A DNA stretch of 32,000 nt from Candidatus Saccharimonadota bacterium. Lineage in GTDB: Bacteria > Patescibacteriota > Gracilibacteria > BD1-5 > UBA6164. Below the pieces are notes generated by a model. That model saw only the letters and a program-made list of their open reading frames with translations. It had not been told where the DNA came from and did not search any database. The translations under genes were made by a program, and so were the position numbers. Each line of letters begins with the position of its first letter. Position 1 is the first letter of the stretch. The DNA is taken from the NCBI GenBank assembly GCA_965227835.1, contig OZ245768.1, positions 660,001-692,000 on the forward strand, given 5' to 3'. Shown one piece after another: positions 1,272 through 31,861 of the stretch.

Positions 1272-2711
1272 TTATTTCCTCACAAATCCACCATGAAATC
1301 CTGCTGTTATTCTAACTGGAAAATATGCTGAAAATTCTTCTTTAAAATTTTTAGCATTAAGCCCAAGTAAAAAGTTTTTCTCTTTTTTTTCATCAAACCC
1401 ATAACACAATAAAATTCCATCATCTTCACTTTTAGAATTTTTATTTTCTACAAAAACTGGTTCTCCAAAATAACAATGTTTTTTTGTAAAAATTAATGAT
1501 TTTTTATGTTCTATTACATCAAGTTTTACTATGTTTTTAAAAATATCATTTCCTTTTATATTTCTTTTCAAGTTCCCAATTCCATACACAAATCTATGTT
1601 TTTTATTTACATATTTCTCATTTATTCTTTGAAGCTCACAAGTATAATCTGATATTTTTTCTTCTTTAACTAATCCACTTTTTAAGTTCATAAAATATCT
1701 CATGTATTTTGGTGGATAAATTGAAACTCCTCCTTTTTTTAAATTTTCTATCATAAAATCTTTTAAAATTTGTGCATTTTCAAAAACTGGAAGTTCAAGT
1801 GTAATTGTATCATTTTCTTCATAGGCATTTGTTGTGTGAAAAAAGAAAAAAGGATTTACTTTAAATGATTTAACTTTTTCACCATTTGATTTTTTAATAA
1901 TATGAATTTTTGTTTTCATAAAATTTCCAAACCATTTTATATTTTGAAAAAATGAGAAAGGCAAAAAAACAACTGCTGCTGGAAATAATAATTTATAGGG
2001 TTGTTCAATTACAACTACATAGTTTTTTGTTTGAGAGAGTGAGTGAAAATAACTGGGACATAATCTAAAAAACCTTTTTATAACTTCTCTTTTTTCAGTT
2101 TTAATATTTTGTTTAATAACTTTATGCTGAGAAATTAAGTTCATTGAGGCAATTATGTTATACATATTTTTCCCATCAATTTGTGGATGAGCAGTTGTTA
2201 TTTGTCCAAAAATTCTGTTAAACTTATAATTCCCTAGTGTGTTTAAACATTTATCAAATTCAACATACTGAGTAGTTTCAGTGAGCGCGAGAAAGTTTTT
2301 ATTTTTATTTTGAATAATATTCACATTACAATTATCCATATCTTTTTGAGAACTTTGAGGAATTTGTGGAAGTACACTTCTTAAAATTCTAAATAACCAA
2401 AATTTAGAAAACCCACTTGGTTTTGTAGCAAACATAAATCCTTTATTTTTATTTTCTTCAATTGATTTTTTATAAGAGTGAGATCTTAAAAATTTATTTT
2501 TAAAATAGATATTATTGTTGACAAACTTTATTGAAAACAAATGTGAAAAACCATCAAACCAATGATTTAAATTATCTTCTCCAACATTAAATTTTCCAGG
2601 TCCAATTCTAAGTAATTGTCCTTTAATATCTTTTGGAATTTTTCAAAGAATTTTTAGTTTAGTCCAATCAGTTTCATTTGATACTTCATCAAAAAAGTTT
2701 TTGAAAACCAT
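1272..2711 (-). CDS. carotenoid cleavage oxygenase family protein (RPE65/CCD/lignostilbene dioxygenase-like), 479 aa
   Basis: The track ORF 1272..2540 extends upstream through one TGA (2643-2645) to ATG 2711. N-terminus: MVFKNFFDEV..LGKIPKDIKGQLLRIGPGKFNVGEDNLNHWFDGFSHLFSIKF. Internal FFFHTTNAYEE and C-terminal TAGFHGGFV are typical His-containing family motifs. Confidence 0.85.
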
Positions 2712-2721
2712 TATAAGAAAA

Positions 2722-3162
2722 TTAAAAAATAATTTTGGATTCCTTTTTTTGTAATTCTTCTTCTAATATTAAAAGCTGTTCAAAAAAGCTTTTTTTTTGT
2801 TTTTTTGAAAATTCACTGAATAATTCTTTACTTGTTTCAAGATATTTTTCTTCTACTTTTTTTATAGTTTTGGTTCATTTTTGGGTTATATAAAAATACC
2901 ATCTTCTTTTATCTTTTTTATTAATATTTCTCACTATAAATCAAGAATCTTCTAGTTTTTTTATTTTTTGTGTGAGACTTGATTTTGTCTCATCTGATAT
3001 TTTTTGTATTTCATGTATTTCAGATAGTCATTTATCTATTACTTTTAACAATCTATAAAGACTTACAGTAAGACTAAATTCTTTAAAAATCATTTTGTTT
3101 CATGTTTTTTCTAGGAGTGTTTTTACTATGAATAGTTTGTTTATAATTTTTATTTCTATCAT
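2722..3162 (-). CDS. MarR-family winged-helix transcriptional regulator, 146 aa
   Basis: ATG 3162, TAA 2722-2724, 10 nt upstream of the oxygenase start. Sequence LTVSLYRLLKVIDKGLSEIHEIQKISDETKSSLTQKIKKLEDSGFIVRNINKKDKRRWYFYITQKGTK (wHTH plus wing). 4/4 Gly are TGA. Confidence 0.75.
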
Positions 3163-3340: not shown

Positions 3341-3595
3341 ATGTTTAGTATATTTTACTTTTTTGGTATAATTCCTGAACTTTTCCCTAAGTTTTGCCGT
3401 GACTTTTTTAATGCTTATAACATTTTTTCTTCACTGTTATCGATTACAATATTCATAGTCATTTGTAGTAATCATCCTGATTTAAGTATATGGGGTAAGT
3501 TAATTTTGGGATTTTTTATCCTAATAGCAACGACTTTTATATTAGGACCAAATACACTAAAAGTAGAACTTAACAACTTAAAAAAGACCGTTTGA
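3341..3595 (+). CDS. small hydrophobic (about 2 TM) protein; 84 aa if TGA 3593-3595 stops, 108 aa (to TAG 3665-3667) if TGA=Gly as elsewhere
   Basis: Consensus promoter, Shine-Dalgarno-like AAAGGAG and a hydrophobic sequence. All 4 Gly are GGN and there is no internal TGA. The first TGA sits in the loop of the terminator hairpin. Confidence 0.45.
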   Translation: MFSIFYFFGIIPELFPKFCRDFFNAYNIFSSLLSITIFIVICSNHPDLSIWGKLILGFFILIATTFILGPNTLKVELNNLKKTV

Positions 3596-3610
3596 AAAAC
3601 GGTCTTTTTT
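3581..3610. terminator. bidirectional intrinsic terminator
   Basis: A5-GACCGTT-TGAAA-AACGGTC-T6. It lies 13 nt downstream of the pheA stop on the minus strand and at the end of ORF 3341 on the plus strand. Confidence 0.75.
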
Positions 3611-3622
3611 AAAATTTCCTCT

Positions 3623-4435
3623 CTAATACTCTCACAAAACCTTAACAAATTTTGTAAAAAACTTTAGTTCTAGCAAAGCCTTTTTTACATTTTTATCTTC
3701 AGTTTTTCATTCAAACTCAAGCCAAAAATAATAAGAAAACTTTCCTTTATAACTAGGCAAACTTTCTATTTTACTTAGATTTATGTTATTTGTAGCAAAA
3801 GCTCAAAGACATTTATACAAACTTGAAGGTATATTTTTAGCTTCAAAAATTATACTCACTTTGTTACTTAAATCCCTATATTTTAAACAAGAATTCTTTT
3901 TTACTATTATGGCAAATCTAGTTGTATTTTCTTTGTTATCATTTATATCTTCATCCAGTATATTTAGTTTGTATAAACTAGCTGCTTTCTTAGAGCATAT
4001 CGCTGCCACTCATTCTTCCTTATTTTCTCATACATATTTTGCAGCAAGAGAAGTATCTGAAAAATCTATGGGAACTATTCATTTTTCTTTTAAATATTTA
4101 TGGCATTGTTCAAGAGCTGGTGTTTGAGAATAAGCTTTTTTTACATTTTTTATTTCTTTTTCTTTTGAAGCTAAACAATGACTAATTTTTAGATAATATT
4201 CTCATATTATTTTAAAATCATATTTCAAAAAACCATATAGATTTGGGTGTATACTTCACATATAAGAATTTTCTATAGCCAAAACTCATATAGAATCATT
4301 TCAAATATTTTCCCAAACATTACTAAATTCTGGCATTCATATTATATCTTCTATTTTTGTGTTTAGTTTAGTTGATACTTTTTGAGAAGCTATATCCATA
4401 TAACTTCAAGTATTTCATTGGTAATATATTTTCAT
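3623..4435 (-). CDS. pheA: prephenate dehydratase (PDT plus ACT domains), 270 aa
   Basis: MKIYYQGNTGSY..GVLAIENSYMGSIHPNLY..TRFAIIVKK..IIFEAKNIPSSLYKCLGAFATNNINLSKIESLPS.. (TRF and ESxP motifs). ATG 4435, TAG 3623-3625. Confidence 0.85.
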
Positions 4436-16940: not shown

Positions 16941-19900
16941 ATGGTTGAAAAAAGAGAAATAGGTGGAGGTTCTATTGAGTCAAATTCAAGCAATAGAGTT
17001 GACACTTCAGTTAAAAGCCATGTAGAAGGTATTTTATGAAATAAAAACGAAATAAATACTTGTCTTACAAGTTATAGATTAAATCAAAATTTAAATAAAA
17101 AAAACTTTGATTTGATTTTTGATTCATTTTTAGAAAAAGCAAAAAGTGATGATAATTTTGCAGAAAATATAGTCCCAGCATTAATAAATACCTGAAATAT
17201 ATCAGAAGAAAAACTGAACTCTAGCTTTGATTTAATCTTAAGAGAATCAAAAAATAGAGATAGTTGGTCAAGATATATATTTCCAGTATTAATAAAAACC
17301 TGAAAGATATCAGAGGATAAATTAAACTCTAATTTTGAGTCAGTTCTACAAGAAGCAAAGCATAATACATATTTAGCAATATATGTAGTACCAGAATTAA
17401 TAAATACATGAAGAATATCGGAAGAAAAATTAAGATTTTTAGATAATTTTTTTGATTTTGCTTTAAAAGAAGCAAGAACTAATCAGGACTTTGCAATATA
17501 TATAATTCCAGCACTAATAAATACCTGAAAGATACCAGAAGAAAAGTTAAACTCTATTTTTGAATCATCTTTAGAAGAAGCAAAAGATAATGAAGACTGG
17601 GCAAAATATATAATTCCACTTTTAATAAATACCTGAAAAATATCAGAAGAGAAATTGAATTCTATTTTTGAATCATCTTTAGAAGAAGCAAAAACAGATT
17701 ATTACTGGACAATCTATATAGTTCCAGTATTAATAAATACATGAAAGATATCAGAAGATAAATTAAACTCTATTTTTGATACAGCTTTAGAAGAAACAAA
17801 AGTTAATGAAAATTGGTCAGAATATATAATTCCAGAACTATTAAATACCTGAAAAATATCGGAAGAAAAACTGAACTCTAGCTTTGATTTAATTTTTAGA
17901 GAATCAAAAAATAGAGGTAGTTGTTCAAAATATATATTTCCAGCACTGATAAAAACCTGAAAGATATCAGAAGATAAATTAAACTCTATTTTTGAATCAT
18001 CTTTAAAAGAAGCAAAAATTAATGAAAATTGGGCAGAATATATAATTCCAGAACTAATAAAAACATGAAAGATATCAGAAGATAAATTAAACTCTATTTT
18101 TGAGTCATCTTTAAAAGAAGCAAAAATTAATGAAAATTGGGCAGAATATATAATTCCAGAACTAATAAAAGCCTTAAAGATATCAGAAGAAAAATTAGAA
18201 CTTCTAGATGATTTTTTTGATTTTATTTTAGAAGAAGCAAAAAGTAACGACGTTTGTGCACGATATGTATTTCTACCACTATTAAATACCTGAAAGATTC
18301 CAGAAAAAAAATTAAAACTTATAGATGGTTTTTTTAGCTTAGCTTTAGAAAAAGCAAAAAATGATTACTTTCGGAGAGAATATATAATTCCACTTTTATT
18401 AAATACCTGAAAGATATCAGAAGAAAAACTGAATTCTATTTTTGAATCGTCTTTAGAAGAAGCAAAGGATAATGAAGATTGGACAGAACATATTGCTCTA
18501 GCATTAATAAATACTTGAAAGATATCAAAAGAGAAATTGAACTCTGTTTTTGAATTATCTTTAGAAGAAGCAAAAACAAATTATTTTTGGGCAGAATATA
18601 TAGTTCCAGCATTGATAAATACATGAAAAATATCAGAAGAAAAATTAAAACTTCTAGATGATTTTTTTGACTTTATTTTAGAAGAAGCAAAAGTTAATGG
18701 TGATTTAGCAGAATATGTAATTCCAGAATTAATAAATACTTGAAAAATATCAGAGGAAAAATTAAAACTTCTAGATGATTTTTTCTATTTAGTTCTAGAA
18801 AATACAGTAACATATGATGATTACCAATCAACACATGCAATATTAGCATTACTAAAAACCTGAAAAGTATTAAATTTTACAATACTAGAACACGATGAAG
18901 AATTTTTATTAAACTATAAAAGAAATAACGAACTATTTGACTCAATATTTAATAAATTAAATCAAAACTTCAAAATACTAACATTTCTAAACAAGAATTT
19001 TCTAAATTTAGAAATCCTTGAAAAAGTAAATAAATTCTTAGAAAAATATCAAGTTAATACAGATATATTTTGAGAAAACATAGAAAAAATTCTACAAAAC
19101 GAAAATGGAATGGAAATATGATATTTTTTAGAATGTATAAAAAAAGAAGAAAATCTTCCTGAAAACTATCCAATAAATACAACCAATTTCACAAACTACA
19201 TAAAAGAAGAAAATGAAGTAATATTTAGCTTTGAAAAAGATGAATGATTAACCTGAGAAACTAAACCCTGGACAAAGAAATGGTTTTTAGAAAATACAGA
19301 AAGAAAAAATTACTTAAAAAAAGAAAATTACAAAACCATAAAGAAATTTGGAACAATAATCTGAATATGGTTACTATGATGATGTAAAGATAAAAAAAGT
19401 CTAGAAAAATTCTATAAATACATATTCTCATCAATAAACATAAAAAAATCAAGAACAAGCCTACTACAGCTATGAGAAATATTTAATCTAATCCTAAGAA
19501 AAGAAGATTACAGTTTACTAGATGAACTAGTATGAAACAAAGTGGAAATATGAAAATGCTTTAAAAACTTTGTAGAGCAATACAAAATCTCAGATAAATG
19601 AAAAACCATACTAACACTATTAATAACAAGAGAAATAAGAGATAGTTACCAAATATTTAATAACAAAAACTGAGACCAACAAATAGACTACACAAGTATA
19701 GAACGTTTATTATTATCAGTCTATAAAAAGCTAGAAAAATATAAAAAAGTAATAGAAATATACAAAAACATACCAGTAAAAACATCTATATGAATAGAAA
19801 TAGAAGTAACACAAAGTATATCAGAAGCATACAAAGAATTAAATCAAAGTGACTATAAAAATGATATAGAAATAATATCAGACTATAGCTGAATATCATC

Positions 19901-21221
19901 ATGAAACGATGCAGTACATGAAATATGTACAAAACCAACAGATAACCCATATTTACTAATACTAGAAATACAACTACTCCAAGACCTAGACTTCCTAGAC
20001 CTAAACTTCAAAAAAGAGTGATATGACAAATGATCTAGATGATTACACATAACAATATGATGAGAAAAAGTAGAAATGGATGAAGAAAGTAATTTCATAC
20101 AAAACATACTATCATTATCAAATATATGAAGTGTAAACTCATGAGAAGAAATAAATAAAGTTAATTATTATTGGAGTATAAGATGAAAAGGAGGTTTAGA
20201 AGATATATATTGAAATATGAACTGAGTAGAATTTAGGAGTTTGAGTATAGATAAATTTGAACAATTTGAGAGGATGATAATATCTACATTTAATCTATTT
20301 ATGTTGAAACAGTTATCTAGTATTAAAGAGATAAATAAATGAAAAGAAAACTGAATATTATTAAAATTAAAAAGACTATTAAGTAAGCAAACAAAAATTA
20401 AAAATCTAAAAAAACTACAAACTCACTTTAAAGAATTAAAAACAAAAATAAAAAGAACTATAGAAAACCACAATAAATATTTTTTAAGGAATGAAAGCTT
20501 AAATGAATGATTAGATAAAAATATAGAAAACCTATTAAAATTATTTATAAGTACCTGACCTGTAATAGAACTAATAAACAAACTAAACTTAAGTATTTGA
20601 TATCTAAGAAGTATATGAGACACAGAAATAAAAACCCAAGAAGAATTTGAACAAAGATTAAATAAAGACTGAAAAGATATATATAGTTTATGAGAGAAAC
20701 AAAGAAAAATACTTTATATGAACTACAAAATAAGAATAAAACCAAACTTAGAAAAGATAAGGAAAAAAGATGAAGAACTATATAACAATATATGAAAATA
20801 TTTAAATTGAAATTTAGATGAGACACTAAGGAAACTAACAAATAGATCTAGATTTTTAGAAGTATGTTTATGAGATGAAAAGAAACTACTAGATTATATA
20901 GAAAGTATAAAAATAGAACCAGAATATATGTATGAGAAAATGGATGAAGATTTATCAAATAAATTTATTAGGATAAATAATCTTTTTATAAAGAAAGATT
21001 CAGTTAATGCTATATGAATGTTAACAACAACTAAAGAAGAGGATTGAGTACTTGTTGATTTATTACAAACAGAGCTTAGTATATATGACAAGCTAGATAG
21101 ATGAATTGAGCCTAGAAAATGATATAATGTTATCCAGTGAGCTAGTGAAGATATGCTTGTACATAGTGTTGCAAGAGAAATTCTTGAATGTAATAGATTG
21201 GTTTTAGAGTATTTGAATTAG
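16941..21221 (+). CDS. giant repeat protein, 1426 aa: 16 tandem 36/39-aa helical repeats, then a linker, an amidoligase-like (GS/GCS2-fold) region and a C-terminal helical region
   Basis: ATG 16941 to TAG 21219-21221, with no TAA/TAG in frame. Candidate ligase motifs at about 19780-20320: IGIEIEV, SGNDAVHEICTKP, SRGLHITIGG, GVEFRSLS. Confidence 0.7.
17094..18863 (+). repeat. in-frame tandem repeat array, 16 units of 108 nt (11 units), 117 nt (4 units) or 120 nt (last unit)
   Basis: Consensus KISEEKLNSIFESSLEEAKxNxxWAEYIIPxLINTG. The invariant Gly is TGA in 15 of 16 units (17193, 17301, 17409, 17526, 17634, 17742, 17850, 17958, 18066, [TTA 18174], 18291, 18408, 18516, 18624, 18741, 18861). 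Confidence 0.9.
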
Positions 21222-28374: not shown

Positions 28375-29439
28375 TTATTTTTCCAATTTTCTCTTCATAT
28401 AAGATATGTATTCTGCCATTTCTCTTGTTTCTTCTATGGAACTACAGGGATCTGTAATAGATTTTCATTTTATTAAATTTTCTTTATCATAGTCTTGTCT
28501 TCATCTATACAAATAACTTTCTGTCATAAAACCTTTAAACATTGATAATATCCCCTTGTTTGATTTCTCTAAACTCTGTAAGTTTTTTATTGTTTCCATC
28601 ATTATATTTAGCTGTCTAGATGGATCTTTTCAAGAATTATCATGATTAGTATCAATTATAAATCAAGGATTTTTTATTTTCATTGATTTTATTTTTTCAA
28701 ATATTTTTTTTAATGATTTTTTATCATAGTTTATTTTTATATTTCATTCAAAATTACTACCTCTTAATATTCAATGAGAAAAATTATTCCCTCTACTAAA
28801 GTATATATCTTCTCATATGGTATAAAAACTTTCAGTTTGTCAGGATTTTATTGAATTTATCATGACTGATAAGTCTCAAGATGTCGGATTTTTAAAACCT
28901 ATGGGCATATCAAGACCAGAAGCTATTTCTCTATGAGATTGATTTTCACTACTCCTAGCTCATATTGCTATATATGAATATATATCATCAAATGATTTAA
29001 TAAGTTGTGGGTGTAACATTTCATCTGCAATAGGCATTCAGAAATTTTCTATTATTTTTACAGCCATTTTTCTAGATTCGATAAGACATTTTCATATATC
29101 AGGTTCCTCTCAAGGTTTTGAATTCTGAACTCATTTCCAACCTCAAACTGTTCTTGGTTTTCCAGTATAAAACCTCATTACTATTTCTATTTCATTTTTA
29201 TGTTTATCTCTTATTTTTGATAATTCTTCTCAATATTTTAATATTGATTCTTCAAAATCTACACTGCAAGGTCAAACTATCCATATTTTTCTATCAGATT
29301 TTCAGCTTATTATATCTTTTAAGTTTTCTATGGATTGAGCAACAACTAGTCTTCATTTTGAAGATAAGGGAGAGCTTTCTTTTATTTGTGTATGAGTTGG
29401 TTTTTTTCAAATATGTATACAATTAGATGAGTTTTCCAT
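28375..29439 (-). CDS. aroG: 3-deoxy-7-phosphoheptulonate (DAHP) synthase, class I (AroG/F/H type), 354 aa
   Basis: ..[116 protein letters not shown]. The isoenzyme type cannot be decided from sequence. Confidence 0.9.
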
Positions 29440-29463
29440 AAATTTATAGTTTATATATAAAAT

Positions 29464-29498
29464 AAAAAAAGAGCCTTTGTAAGTTTCTTGAAAGGCTC
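29464..29498 (-). terminator. intrinsic terminator acting as the terminator arm of a putative aroG attenuator
   Basis: Minus-strand RNA GAGCCUUU(C)AAG-AAA-CUU(AC)AAAGGCUC plus U7. The U-run ends 25 nt before the aroG ATG. On the plus strand the same hairpin is also followed by a T-run. Confidence 0.75.
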
Positions 29499-29519
29499 TT
29501 TTTTGTTTCTAAAATTATT

Positions 29520-29591
29520 TTATGACCAAAAAACTTCTTTCAAGCACGAAAGTTTAAAAAAGAAGTAAAAATATATATTTTTAATAATCAT
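29520..29591 (-). CDS. putative aromatic-amino-acid leader peptide, 23 aa: MIIKNIYFYFFFKLSCLKEVFWS
   Basis: ATG 29591-29589, TAA 29522-29520. Codons 7-12 are UAU UUU UAC UUC UUU UUU. It sits between a TTGACA promoter and the terminator just upstream of aroG. Confidence 0.55.
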   Translation of the reverse strand: MIIKNIYFYFFFKLSCLKEVFWS

Positions 29592-29618
29592 AACTTTATT
29601 TTATTAATTGTGTCCCAA

Positions 29619-29646
29619 AGATTAATTTGATTTAGTTGTATGTCAA
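29619..29646 (-). promoter_or_regulatory. candidate promoter TTGACA-16 nt-TAATCT for the leader-aroG transcript
   Basis: Minus-strand TTGACA at 29646-29641 and TAATCT at 29624-29619, 27 nt upstream of the leader ATG. Confidence 0.4.
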
Positions 29647-29714
29647 ATTTTTTTGGCTTTATTTTATTATCTGTACCAATAGATAGGTATCAGTATTTTT
29701 TAAATTCACTATTT

Positions 29715-31706
29715 TTAGCTTTTATTTAAGTAATCTCATGCAAATTTATTTGTAAGTTCTATGAACTCACTAGGGTTTTCTATTTCACCTCATTCAAGAA
29801 GTATTGCTCAAGCATATGAATAATTTATTATATCTTTAAGTTTTTCTGATTTAACATCTTTTTCAAATTCAGATTTCATAGAATCAAGTAAAGGATTTTT
29901 AGGATTTAATTCTAAAATTCTTTTTTGAACTGGTACATCTTGCCCCATAGCTTTCATCATTTTTTCCATTTGAGGGTCTATTCAAGATTTTGATTTTCTA
30001 AGTGCGGCTAAAGCATTTCATAGTTTATCGTTTAATACCACATCTTCTATTTTTTCTTTTGGAAGACTAGATTTTATAAAATCAAACAAAGCTTTTAAAT
30101 CCTTAGATTTTTCTTCTTCTTGTTTTTTTTGTTTTTCAGTTTTTTGTTCTAATTCTATATCATCACTAGTTATAGAAATCAGTTTAGCTTCTTTATAATC
30201 AGTAAAACTTTGCATTAAAAATGAATCTATAGGATCAGTTAGGATTAAAACATCTATATTTTTTTCTCTAAATTGATTTAGGTAAGGACTAGACAGGGCT
30301 TCTGAGTGAGATTTAGATATTATATAGTAAATCTTCTTTGATGCTTTTTTGTTTTCTTCCTCATTTTCATTTTTATTATCATCTTTTTTAATTTCTTCTT
30401 TTGAGTTACTTTTTGTATCCTCTGGAGCTTTCTCTAAATATTCATCAAGTGTTATTAGTGATGTATTATTCATTGATTTAAACATAGATATTTCTGCTAT
30501 ATCTTGTTTTAGGTCATATTCATAATGTATTCATTCTTTTATAGTTTTTCAATAATTTTCCCAGAATTTTATATAATCTTCTCTTTTATTTTTCAAAGTT
30601 TTTCAAAGTTCTGTTATAACTTTTTTTGTTAATCATTTTTTTATTTTATCCAGTGAGCTATTTGATTGAAGCATTTCTCTGCTTATGTTCAAAGGTAAAT
30701 CTGAGGTTTCAACTACTCAAGAAATGAATCTAAGCCAAACAGGCATTAGCTCTTTTGCATTTTCTAAAATCAATACATTTTGTACATATAATCTTGGTCC
30801 ATAATCAACATTTGGATCATTTAAGTTTTTATACATACTCACTTCTTTTGGAGAAAAAAGTATTGATTTATAAGATACCATTCATTCTACATTATTATGA
30901 ATATGAAAAAGAGGATTATTCCAATCACTTGAAACTGTTTTATAAAACTCTTCATATTGCTCTTTTTTGATTTCAGATTTAGATTTTTTCCATATGGCTT
31001 TTGTTTCGTTTACTTGCTCAAAAGGCATTTCTTTTTTTTCTTTTTTCTTTTCTTCATCAGTTCTAGAATCATACTGCTTCATCATTATAGGAGTTGAAAT
31101 ATAGTTTGAATATTTTTTTACTAGTTCTTTTAATTTCCAATCTTCTAAATATTCTTTTTCCTCTTTTTTAATATATAAAGTAACTCTAGTTCACCTTGGT
31201 GCACTTTTGATATCCATTTCTTCTATAATATAGCTATCCTTTCAATCAGAAGACCATTTATAAGCTTTTTTATCTTCAGGACTTTTAGTAAATACCTCAA
31301 CTTTATCTGCAACCATAAAACTTGAATAAAATCAAACCCCAAATTGACCAATTAAACTATTTTCTCAAGATTCTTTTGCTTTTTTTAATTTCTCTAAAAA
31401 TTCTTTTGTTCCAGATTTTGCTATTGTTCAAAGATTTTTTTGTAATTCATTGTTTGTCATTCAAATACCGTTATCACTTACAGAAATGCTTTTATTTTTT
31501 TCATCTATTTCAATCATTATTTTAAACTCACTATCTTTTCATAAATAGTTTGTATCTGTTAGAGATTTTATCCTAGCTTTGTCTATTGCATCATTTGAGT
31601 TGGATATAAGTTCTCTTAAAAATATTTCTTTGTTTGAATATATACTGTGAGTTAAGAGTTCTAAAACTTTTCAGGTTTCAGCTTCAAAATTGTGTTTGTT
31701 GCTCAT
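29715..31706 (-). CDS. htpG: molecular chaperone HtpG (Hsp90), 663 aa
   Basis: [92 protein letters not shown].. Joins track ORFs 30018..30485 and 30882..31085 (same frame). The TGA at 31332-31334 is the Gly of GVGFYS. Confidence 0.95.
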
Positions 31707-31747
31707 TTTTTATTTAAAATTTAGGATATAAAATAAATTTTTTACCA

Positions 31748-31786: not shown

Positions 31787-31827
31787 ATTACTTTTTATTG
31801 TTTAGTCAAGAAAAAAGCTAAAATTAT

Positions 31828-31861
31828 AAAACAGGTTCATACATCAAGTATGAACCTGTTT
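31828..31861 (-). terminator. intrinsic terminator of the upstream minus-strand gene
   Basis: AAACAGGTTCATAC-(5 nt)-GTATGAACCTGTTT, followed on the minus strand by TTTTATAATTTT. Confidence 0.6.

Follow-up and report, generated by a model that had tools for sequence, protein, structure and literature searches.

The window analysed here is a stretch of 32,000 nt from contig OZ245768.1 of assembly GCA_965227835.1 (Candidatus Saccharimonadota bacterium, Gracilibacteria by lineage), and all positions given below are counted from its first letter. On its minus strand, a gap of 275 nt separates the stop codon of htpG from the ATG (29439) of a gene for 3-deoxy-7-phosphoheptulonate (DAHP) synthase, and this gap holds a leader element composed of a promoter, a short aromatic-rich open reading frame (ORF), alternative RNA pairings and an intrinsic terminator. 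The GC content of the window is ~23%. ORFs called with translation table 11 are broken up, and long genes emerge when TGA is read as a sense codon. The DAHP synthase, which scores 233 bits against TIGR00034 aroFGH (cutoff 173), contains 20 in-frame TGA codons; 11 of them occupy near-invariant Gly columns of standard-code homologues and none falls on Trp. From this alignment it follows that UGA encodes glycine in the source organism. Inspection of the 20 nt upstream of the start codon at 23 gene starts in the window detected no Shine-Dalgarno-like motif (0/23), and these upstream regions were A/T-rich only.

The features of the element are described in Table 1. The preliminary description of this DNA had placed the promoter, leader ORF, pairings, terminator and U7 tract at coordinates that all match the sequence. 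Three mutually exclusive pairings were observed in the leader transcript: segment 1 with segment 2 (ACUUCUUU, 29566-29559, with AAAGAAGU, 29540-29533), segment 2 with segment 3 (CUUGAAAG, 29544-29537, with CUUUCAAG, 29494-29487; 8 bp), and the two terminator arms with each other (GAGCCUUU, 29498-29491, with AAAGGCUC, 29478-29471). The 8-bp antiterminator pairing had been described correctly, and its extent had been underestimated: a second helix of 7 bp is formed by UUUUUUG (29533-29527) and CAAAAAA (29505-29499), giving an antiterminator of two helices and 15 bp in full. The Phe-Trp pair just before the leader stop is likewise present; it is probably a by-product of the conserved U-tract being read in frame and not a pair of regulatory codons. 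A consensus promoter/terminator scan passed over both the -10 hexamer, which scored below threshold, and the terminator, whose loop exceeds the 8-nt limit of the tool.

Table 1. Components of the leader element and flanking genes, with positions in the window.
Feature	Position	Strand	Basis or remark
-35 hexamer TTGACA of the leader promoter	29641..29646	-	sequence and conservation in relatives
-10 hexamer TAATCT, 16-nt spacer	29619..29624	-	weak; 3/6 consensus positions (T1, A2, T6 kept)
Leader ORF MIIKNIYFYFFFKLSCLKEVFWS, 23 codons + TAA	29520..29591	-	sequence; homologous leaders in 12 other loci
Regulatory codon run TAT TTT TAC TTC TTT TTT (Y F Y F F F), proposed stall site	29556..29573	-	
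Segment 1 ACUUCUUUU, within the aromatic codons, anti-antiterminator arm	29558..29566	-	minimum-free-energy folds; same layout in relatives
Segment 2 CUUGAAAGAAG, followed by U6 tract and G (UUUUUUG)	29527..29544	-	partner is segment 1 (via 29541-29533) or segment 3
Segment 3 CAAAAAAGAGCCUUUCAAG, terminator 5' arm and antiterminator partner of segment 2	29487..29505	-	
Intrinsic terminator, core stem 29498-29491/29478-29471, 4 G-C pairs, A6:U6 extension, 12-nt loop	29465..29504	-	
U7 tract of the terminator	29464..29470	-	24 nt left before the DAHP synthase ATG
Type I-alpha DAHP synthase, 354 aa, regulated gene	28375..29439	-	PF00793, E=5e-42
htpG, upstream gene (context only, outside the element)	29715..31709	-	Pfam HSP90, E=5e-103
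htpG stop	29717-29715	-	sequence

Folding of the leader region gave -31.5 kcal/mol (z=-3.8 against shuffles), with a structure that comprises the 1:2 hairpin and the terminator. The 1:2 hairpin was computed at -8.2 kcal/mol (-12.8 including its outer pairs), the 15-bp antiterminator at -12.7 kcal/mol, and the terminator at -9.0 kcal/mol for its core and -15.1 kcal/mol with the A6:U6 extension. Set beside the 1:2 hairpin and the full terminator, the antiterminator is thus energetically relevant, and a check named in the preliminary description came out in favour of an attenuator. When the 2:3 complementarity was compared with dinucleotide shuffles and combined over nine independent loci, a Fisher p=1.5e-7 was obtained.

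To place the element in a wider context, DAHP synthase homologues with 46-58% identity were taken from metagenomes and from genomes labelled Gracilibacteria, and their flanking DNA was compared. A scan of a genome collection returned mostly Firmicutes (recoded genes rank low), and L001-L003 were its only useful loci. In total, 13 distinct UGA=Gly recoded loci, the window and 12 others, share the promoter, the leader with its Phe/Tyr run, the mutually exclusive pairings and the terminator, which agrees with the earlier expectation of a short aromatic ORF with alternative pairings upstream of DAHP synthase in relatives. Members found by ORF scan were L082, L084, L085, L087, L089, L090, L092, L169, L001, L002 and L003; the same element was observed in L081 (ENA ERZ25074195), a near-identical contig that is essentially the window's own strain. 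The DAHP synthase genes of all member loci contain 5-25 in-frame TGA codons, and the GC content of the element-bearing loci ranges from 24 to 40%. Among approximately 150 non-recoded homologous loci (Firmicutes, Bacteroidales, spirochaetes), one chance ORF was found and no covariance-model match at E<0.1.

In all 13 loci the ATG is kept, and in frame with it stands a run of Phe/Tyr codons in which synonymous codons interchange (TTT/TTC, TAT/TAC). The run comprises 5-7 codons in this family, with at least four Phe and at least one Tyr in each relative, and the leaders are 17-26 codons long. The L082 leader reads MQTYSSTFFYFFFRSRRMFFGMISK, and that of L084 (MTGNTNTFYFFYFWTPMVSKNVFCV) has UGA as its third codon (L084:181-183), such that the run is reached only with UGA as a sense codon. 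In L090, the leader ORF ends in ...VF-UGA-UGA-UAA (UGA codons at L090:1407-1412). The spacing is also conserved, with 14-34 nt from leader stop to terminator stem and 22-35 nt from terminator to gene ATG (11 loci measured for each), and 126-173 nt from leader ATG to gene ATG across loci. At the place equivalent to the -35 hexamer, TTGAC[AT] or TTTGC[AC] is present in at least 10 of the 13 related loci; the -10 hexamers of the relatives are TATAGT, TATAAA, TATACT, TATAAT or CATAAT, and the -10 hexamer ends 26-36 nt before the leader ATG (8 nt in L001 and L002).

The loci L001-L003 are titled 'Candidatus Peribacteria', a label whose lineage is usually assigned the standard code. Between 5 and 8 in-frame TGA codons are nevertheless present in each of their DAHP synthase genes, located on conserved Gly in L001 and L003 (the two checked), and these genomes use UGA=Gly despite the label.

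The sequences of the stems differ by locus, with a terminator 5' arm that reads GAGCCUUU, GAUUCUUCG, AUUUCCUUUAG, AUCUUUCAA, GAGCUAUUU, GUCCUUCUU or CCCUUCGC. A purine-rich segment 2 is nevertheless present in every locus and shows complementarity to two partners: segment 1, formed by the aromatic codons or the sequence just 3' of them, and segment 3. The Phe/Tyr codon run (YUUCUUY) itself serves as segment 1 and is mimicked by segment 3; segment 2 resembles GAAGAA. Common descent links the loci, yet such an architecture, in intergenic DNA beside proteins of only ~50% identity, would not persist without selection. Directly 3' of segment 2, a U5-6 tract is found in 10 loci (all but L001-L003), whether it lies inside the ORF or not, and in L089 the U-tract is kept without a partner A-tract. 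The 1:2 hairpin with its U-tract looks like a pause or terminator signal.

Ribosome masks were modelled on 11 loci, using the transcript as made before segment 4 and a stalled mask that extends from A-15 to A+12. With the ribosome on the aromatic run, segment 3 was paired to segment 2 in 11/11 loci; with the ribosome at the stop codon, the 2:3 pairing was lost or reduced in 10/11. Moving the mask from the first position to the second changed the fold of the window from -14.5 to -5.8 kcal/mol.

Alignment of the leaders with MAFFT and RNAalifold recovered the terminator only. Because the 1:2 and 2:3 registers shift slightly between loci, these helices were analysed per sequence and on a model-based alignment. 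Covariation was assessed on this 13-sequence alignment, which is fitted to the terminator helix and not to the antiterminator helix. In the terminator helix, 97% of the cells were paired and 7 of the 8 pairs showed compensatory changes, a level reached in 0/500 shuffles. The antiterminator helix had 77% of its cells paired (at most 56% when slid) and compensatory changes in 4 of 8 pairs, which 2 of 500 shuffles equalled.

A covariance model, R1, was built on eleven relatives (alignment A4) with the window left out. It recovered the window element at full length (29463-29591, minus strand) with 72.9 bits and E=7e-10, where E-values are to be read as rough. Against all 170 loci, R1 matched family members only, plus two extras described below (L083 and a second element of L001). 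The second-best match in the window, at 28.8 bits (3578-3690, minus strand), was rejected as an attenuator; it corresponds to the 3' end of a prephenate dehydratase gene and a bidirectional terminator. In Rfam, no family reached its gathering score anywhere in the window. The match with the lowest E-value on the strand of the element was RF01859 Phe_leader (24.8 bits, E=0.13; gathering threshold 55 bits), which spans 29464-29586, and the other sub-threshold matches do not span the whole leader. Membership in RF01859 was rejected: the score is below threshold, the model gave no match on the leaders of 8 relatives, and it scores an ordinary terminator (L001 6426-6501) about equally. The element defines an RNA family of 13 members, with a working covariance model and uncatalogued in Rfam.

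The two extra matches extend the element to other aromatic-pathway genes. L083 (Gracilibacteria genome GCA_041659565), a member absent from the training of R1, was matched at 476-597 with 46.5 bits and carries the leader MKINNLSLNFFYFYFSGYFLK. Here the attenuator (L083:404-600), with promoter TTGACA/TATACT, leader and terminator, heads an aroK/aroD-aroE-DAHP synthase operon and does not stand directly before the DAHP synthase gene. The weaker R1 match, at L001:5383-5536, represents a second attenuator type with leader MLTTLHIARYYYYFFLGRKDVSYCP and a strong terminator, and has a homologous counterpart at L003:5376-5510 (leader ...RYYYRFF...). These leaders are richer in Tyr, with RYYYYFF or RYYYRFF in L001 and L003. 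They are followed by a gene for a 279-290-aa protein with sub-cutoff matches to NCBIfam PRK11199 (E=6e-13) and PRK08655 (E=5e-7); for the L001 protein, Pfam gave no match and a PDB sequence search gave irrelevant matches only. The L001/L003 pair looks like a Tyr-biased leader before a tyrA-like (prephenate dehydrogenase-like) gene, and a Tyr-richer leader in this position is what a ribosome-stalling model predicts.

The sequence parts, the three exclusive pairings, their energies, their conservation and their covariation were all computed here. They comprise in silico the features of leader-peptide attenuators: a cluster of pathway codons, a terminator, a mutually exclusive antiterminator, and a 1:2 pairing whose 5' arm would be under the stalled ribosome. 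The leader codes for amino acids whose biosynthetic pathway begins with DAHP synthase, the product of the gene that follows. We consider it highly probable that the element is a ribosome-mediated (leader-peptide) transcription attenuator, predicted to tune DAHP synthase to the supply of charged tRNA-Phe and tRNA-Tyr. This reading had been proposed in the preliminary description, and it is supported by the conservation in recoded relatives, the covariation and the match of the leave-one-out model.

From this arrangement we infer leader translation, ribosome stalling, polymerase pausing and termination in the following form. Transcription would start at the TTGACA/TAATCT promoter, and the 23-codon leader would be translated while RNA polymerase proceeds. 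The pyrimidine-rich aromatic codons of segment 1 could pair with the purine-rich segment 2, which could alternatively pair with segment 3, the terminator 5' arm that mimics the aromatic codons. Under low Phe/Tyr-tRNA charging, the ribosome would stall on YFYFFF and cover segment 1; the 2:3 pairing would form once segment 3 is made, the terminator would not, and the polymerase would read into the gene. With ample aromatic tRNAs, the ribosome would reach the UAA, cover the 3' part of segment 2 and sit between segments 2 and 3, or the 1:2 pairing might re-form behind it; in both cases the 3:4 hairpin and the U7 tract would cause termination 24 nt before the gene. If no translation takes place, 1:2 would form and termination would be expected as well. 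By analogy with the 1:2 pause of trpL, the 1:2 hairpin and the conserved U-tract probably pause the polymerase until the ribosome arrives, and the two conserved parts might together form a pause site, or a first terminator, whose action depends on translation.

Several observations weigh against this interpretation. No Shine-Dalgarno motif was found before the leader ORF; because none of the 23 starts checked in the window has one, this is no argument against translation of the leader. Of the proposed promoter, the hexamer positions stand, and the -10 hexamer is weak, with just 3/6 consensus positions; moreover, in a consensus scan promoter-like matches occur at chance level in this AT-rich DNA, and support for the promoter therefore comes from its conservation. 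The 2:3 complementarity is modest in the window alone (p=0.04 against dinucleotide shuffles). At equilibrium, all ribosome masks applied to the window leave the terminator in the minimum-free-energy structure, and the switch must therefore be kinetic, as is also needed in classical attenuators. In L082, the stop-codon mask leaves the 2:3 pairing in place and the ribosome would sit inside the loop, and one has to suppose either steric exclusion or a re-formed 1:2 pairing. The element was missing from the flanks examined at three related loci (L086, L093 and L170). At a fourth (L168:1095-1180), the promoter and terminator are kept and a (TA)n microsatellite of ~30 nt stands in place of the leader ORF, which represents either a decayed attenuator or an assembly artefact.

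Other explanations were weighed on the same evidence. The hairpin and U7 tract could be the terminator of htpG, with the aromatic ORF and pairings produced by chance in T-rich DNA and the DAHP synthase gene transcribed from elsewhere. The terminator is indeed canonical and lies on the same strand downstream of htpG, no convincing terminator is present directly after the htpG stop, and T-rich DNA does give Phe-rich ORFs: among 455 short ORFs in the window, 12 contain 5 or more aromatics within 7 codons, nearly all of them antisense to coding sequence. However, just 2 of 5000 dinucleotide shuffles of the 275-nt gap (0.04%) produced an ORF of 8-45 codons that starts with ATG and has 6 or more aromatics in 7, and the 24 nt between terminator and ATG leave no room for a separate promoter and untranslated region. 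Across loci, the gene upstream of the element varies between HtpG, a WecG-type glycosyltransferase (in L082, the immediate upstream neighbour of attenuator plus DAHP synthase), an uncharacterised 191-aa gene that itself lies downstream of a TerC-family gene, and a divergent gene. The unit of ORF and terminator before DAHP synthase is thus found with another or a divergent upstream gene in L082, L085, L087 and L169, and the terminator is present in L085 and L169 even though their upstream genes lie on the opposite strand. Such changing neighbours, together with the score that the element reaches in a model built without the window, make an htpG terminator with chance companions extremely unlikely, and the hairpin may well also stop read-through from htpG.

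The switch could also be real and answer to a different sensor, with the ORF being incidental; candidates would be a TRAP- or PyrR-like RNA-binding protein, an uncharged tRNA as in T-boxes, or a small ligand. Alternative structures by themselves do not name the sensor, and two families, the PyrG leader and the PyrR binding site, give weak sub-threshold Rfam matches that overlap the element. Neither T-box nor any other cis-regulatory Rfam family reached threshold in the window or came close to it in the relatives; for T-box, there was no match at E<=10 in window positions 29000-30000. The conserved ATG, the synonymously varying Phe/Tyr run (all 13 loci), the conserved stop position (11 measured), the identity of segment 1 with the aromatic codons themselves and the shift of the leader towards Tyr before the tyrA-like gene all favour the ribosome, and we regard another sensor as very unlikely. 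If the ORF instead encoded a small functional peptide, hydrophobic or aromatic, that has a terminator of its own and no connection to the regulation of DAHP synthase, this would agree with the conserved position of the ORF and with its own promoter and terminator. Outside the aromatic run, however, conservation tracks the RNA helices (the LS codons CUU UCG; KE/KD in GAAAGAAG), the peptides range from 17 to 26 residues in size, a gene of the aromatic pathway always comes directly after the ORF, and no promoter fits between terminator and gene. An independent peptide is hardly credible on these grounds, and a leader-peptide attenuator remains the preferred interpretation.

Compared with known systems, the mechanism proposed for this attenuator is canonical (trpL, pheL, pheM) and adds nothing mechanistically to the trpL/pheL/aroR paradigm. 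The enterobacterial pheL-pheA leader (RF01859) shares with it a short Phe-run leader, alternative 1:2, 2:3 and 3:4 hairpins and an intrinsic terminator; pheL controls pheA (chorismate mutase/prephenate dehydratase) and has no Tyr codons, whereas the present element is predicted to control DAHP synthase. The trpL leader has its stop codon between segments 1 and 2 and two regulatory Trp codons only, unlike the leader described here, in which the codon run doubles as segment 1 and the ORF continues across segment 2. In its four segments, in the kinetic competition of terminator and antiterminator and in the possible 1:2 pause, the element resembles trpL-trpEDCBA of E. coli (Yanofsky model, cited in PMC11802643). 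The aroR-aroF system of Corynebacterium glutamicum (Neshat et al. 2014, as summarised in PMC11802643) has a Phe-Tyr-Phe leader before DAHP synthase and experimental support. It has in common with the present element a Phe/Tyr leader upstream of DAHP synthase and a read-through that is raised by stalling at low aromatic tRNA charging, as predicted here; the two differ in that aroR has a Phe-Tyr-Phe triplet in Actinobacteria, in contrast to 5-7 aromatic codons in the putative attenuator of recoded candidate-phyla bacteria. A generic screen predicts attenuators before aroA-I-alpha_Y > tyrA in Vibrio and aroA-I-beta > tyrA in Thermus (PMC1173090); like the present element, these are computed terminator/antiterminator structures upstream of DAHP synthase genes, and they come from other phyla. 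Attenuation of DAHP synthase is thus already known, and what is new is the predicted attenuator family, uncatalogued until now, in UGA=Gly recoded candidate-phyla bacteria. To our knowledge, no sequence relationship is to be expected between aroR-aroF and the element.

Full-text literature searches on leader peptides or attenuation in Gracilibacteria, Patescibacteria and the candidate phyla radiation found nothing relevant, in agreement with the earlier statement that no leader-peptide attenuator has been described in these groups. It appears rather likely that UGA=Gly recoded candidate-phyla bacteria (Gracilibacteria/Absconditabacteria-type) carry lineage-wide leader-peptide attenuators for aromatic genes, including DAHP synthase, the aroK/D-aroE-DAHP synthase operon and the tyrA-like gene. 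If true, this would represent the first evidence of amino-acid sensing by coupled transcription and translation in these ultra-small, Shine-Dalgarno-less bacteria. Candidate-phyla bacteria are usually described as poorly regulated symbionts without amino-acid biosynthesis. The recoded lineage studied here has retained the enzyme at the entry to aromatic synthesis, which seems to be regulated through the sensing of tRNA charging; a prephenate dehydratase gene in the window, and aroK/D and aroE beside the DAHP synthase gene in relatives, provide context for the retention of the pathway. The element would imply tight transcription-translation coupling in organisms that show no Shine-Dalgarno motifs, and may serve as a handle for predicting growth-limiting amino acids. 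The UGA codons within two leaders (L084 and L090) offer small natural test cases for UGA=Gly decoding; the leader of the window itself contains none.

Further observations were made elsewhere in the window. The prephenate dehydratase gene (3623-4435, minus strand; NCBIfam PRK11898, E=2e-57, 194 bits against a curated cutoff of 219) begins after a gap of just 5 nt behind a WecG-type glycosyltransferase gene and has no leader of its own, and no second attenuator was found in the window. A strong bidirectional terminator (AAAAAAGACCGUUUUUCAAACGGUCUUUUUU, 3579-3609) is located 3' of it. Upstream of htpG, a terminator-like 14-bp hairpin (31861-31829, minus strand) overlaps a 12-codon ORF (MNLFYNFSFFLD, 31840-31802); the covariance model gave just 12 bits at 31802-31861 (minus strand), and the hairpin is probably the terminator of the gene preceding htpG. 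On the plus strand, a 1426-aa protein (16941-21221) displays many tandem repeats of ~37 aa (...INTGKISEEKLNSIFESSLEEAK...) in its N-terminal half. A gene resembling carotenoid/lignostilbene-cleavage dioxygenases (1272-3162, minus strand; NCBIfam E=1.5e-39, below cutoff) adjoins a small MarR-like ORF and would be an unusual cargo for a reduced genome.

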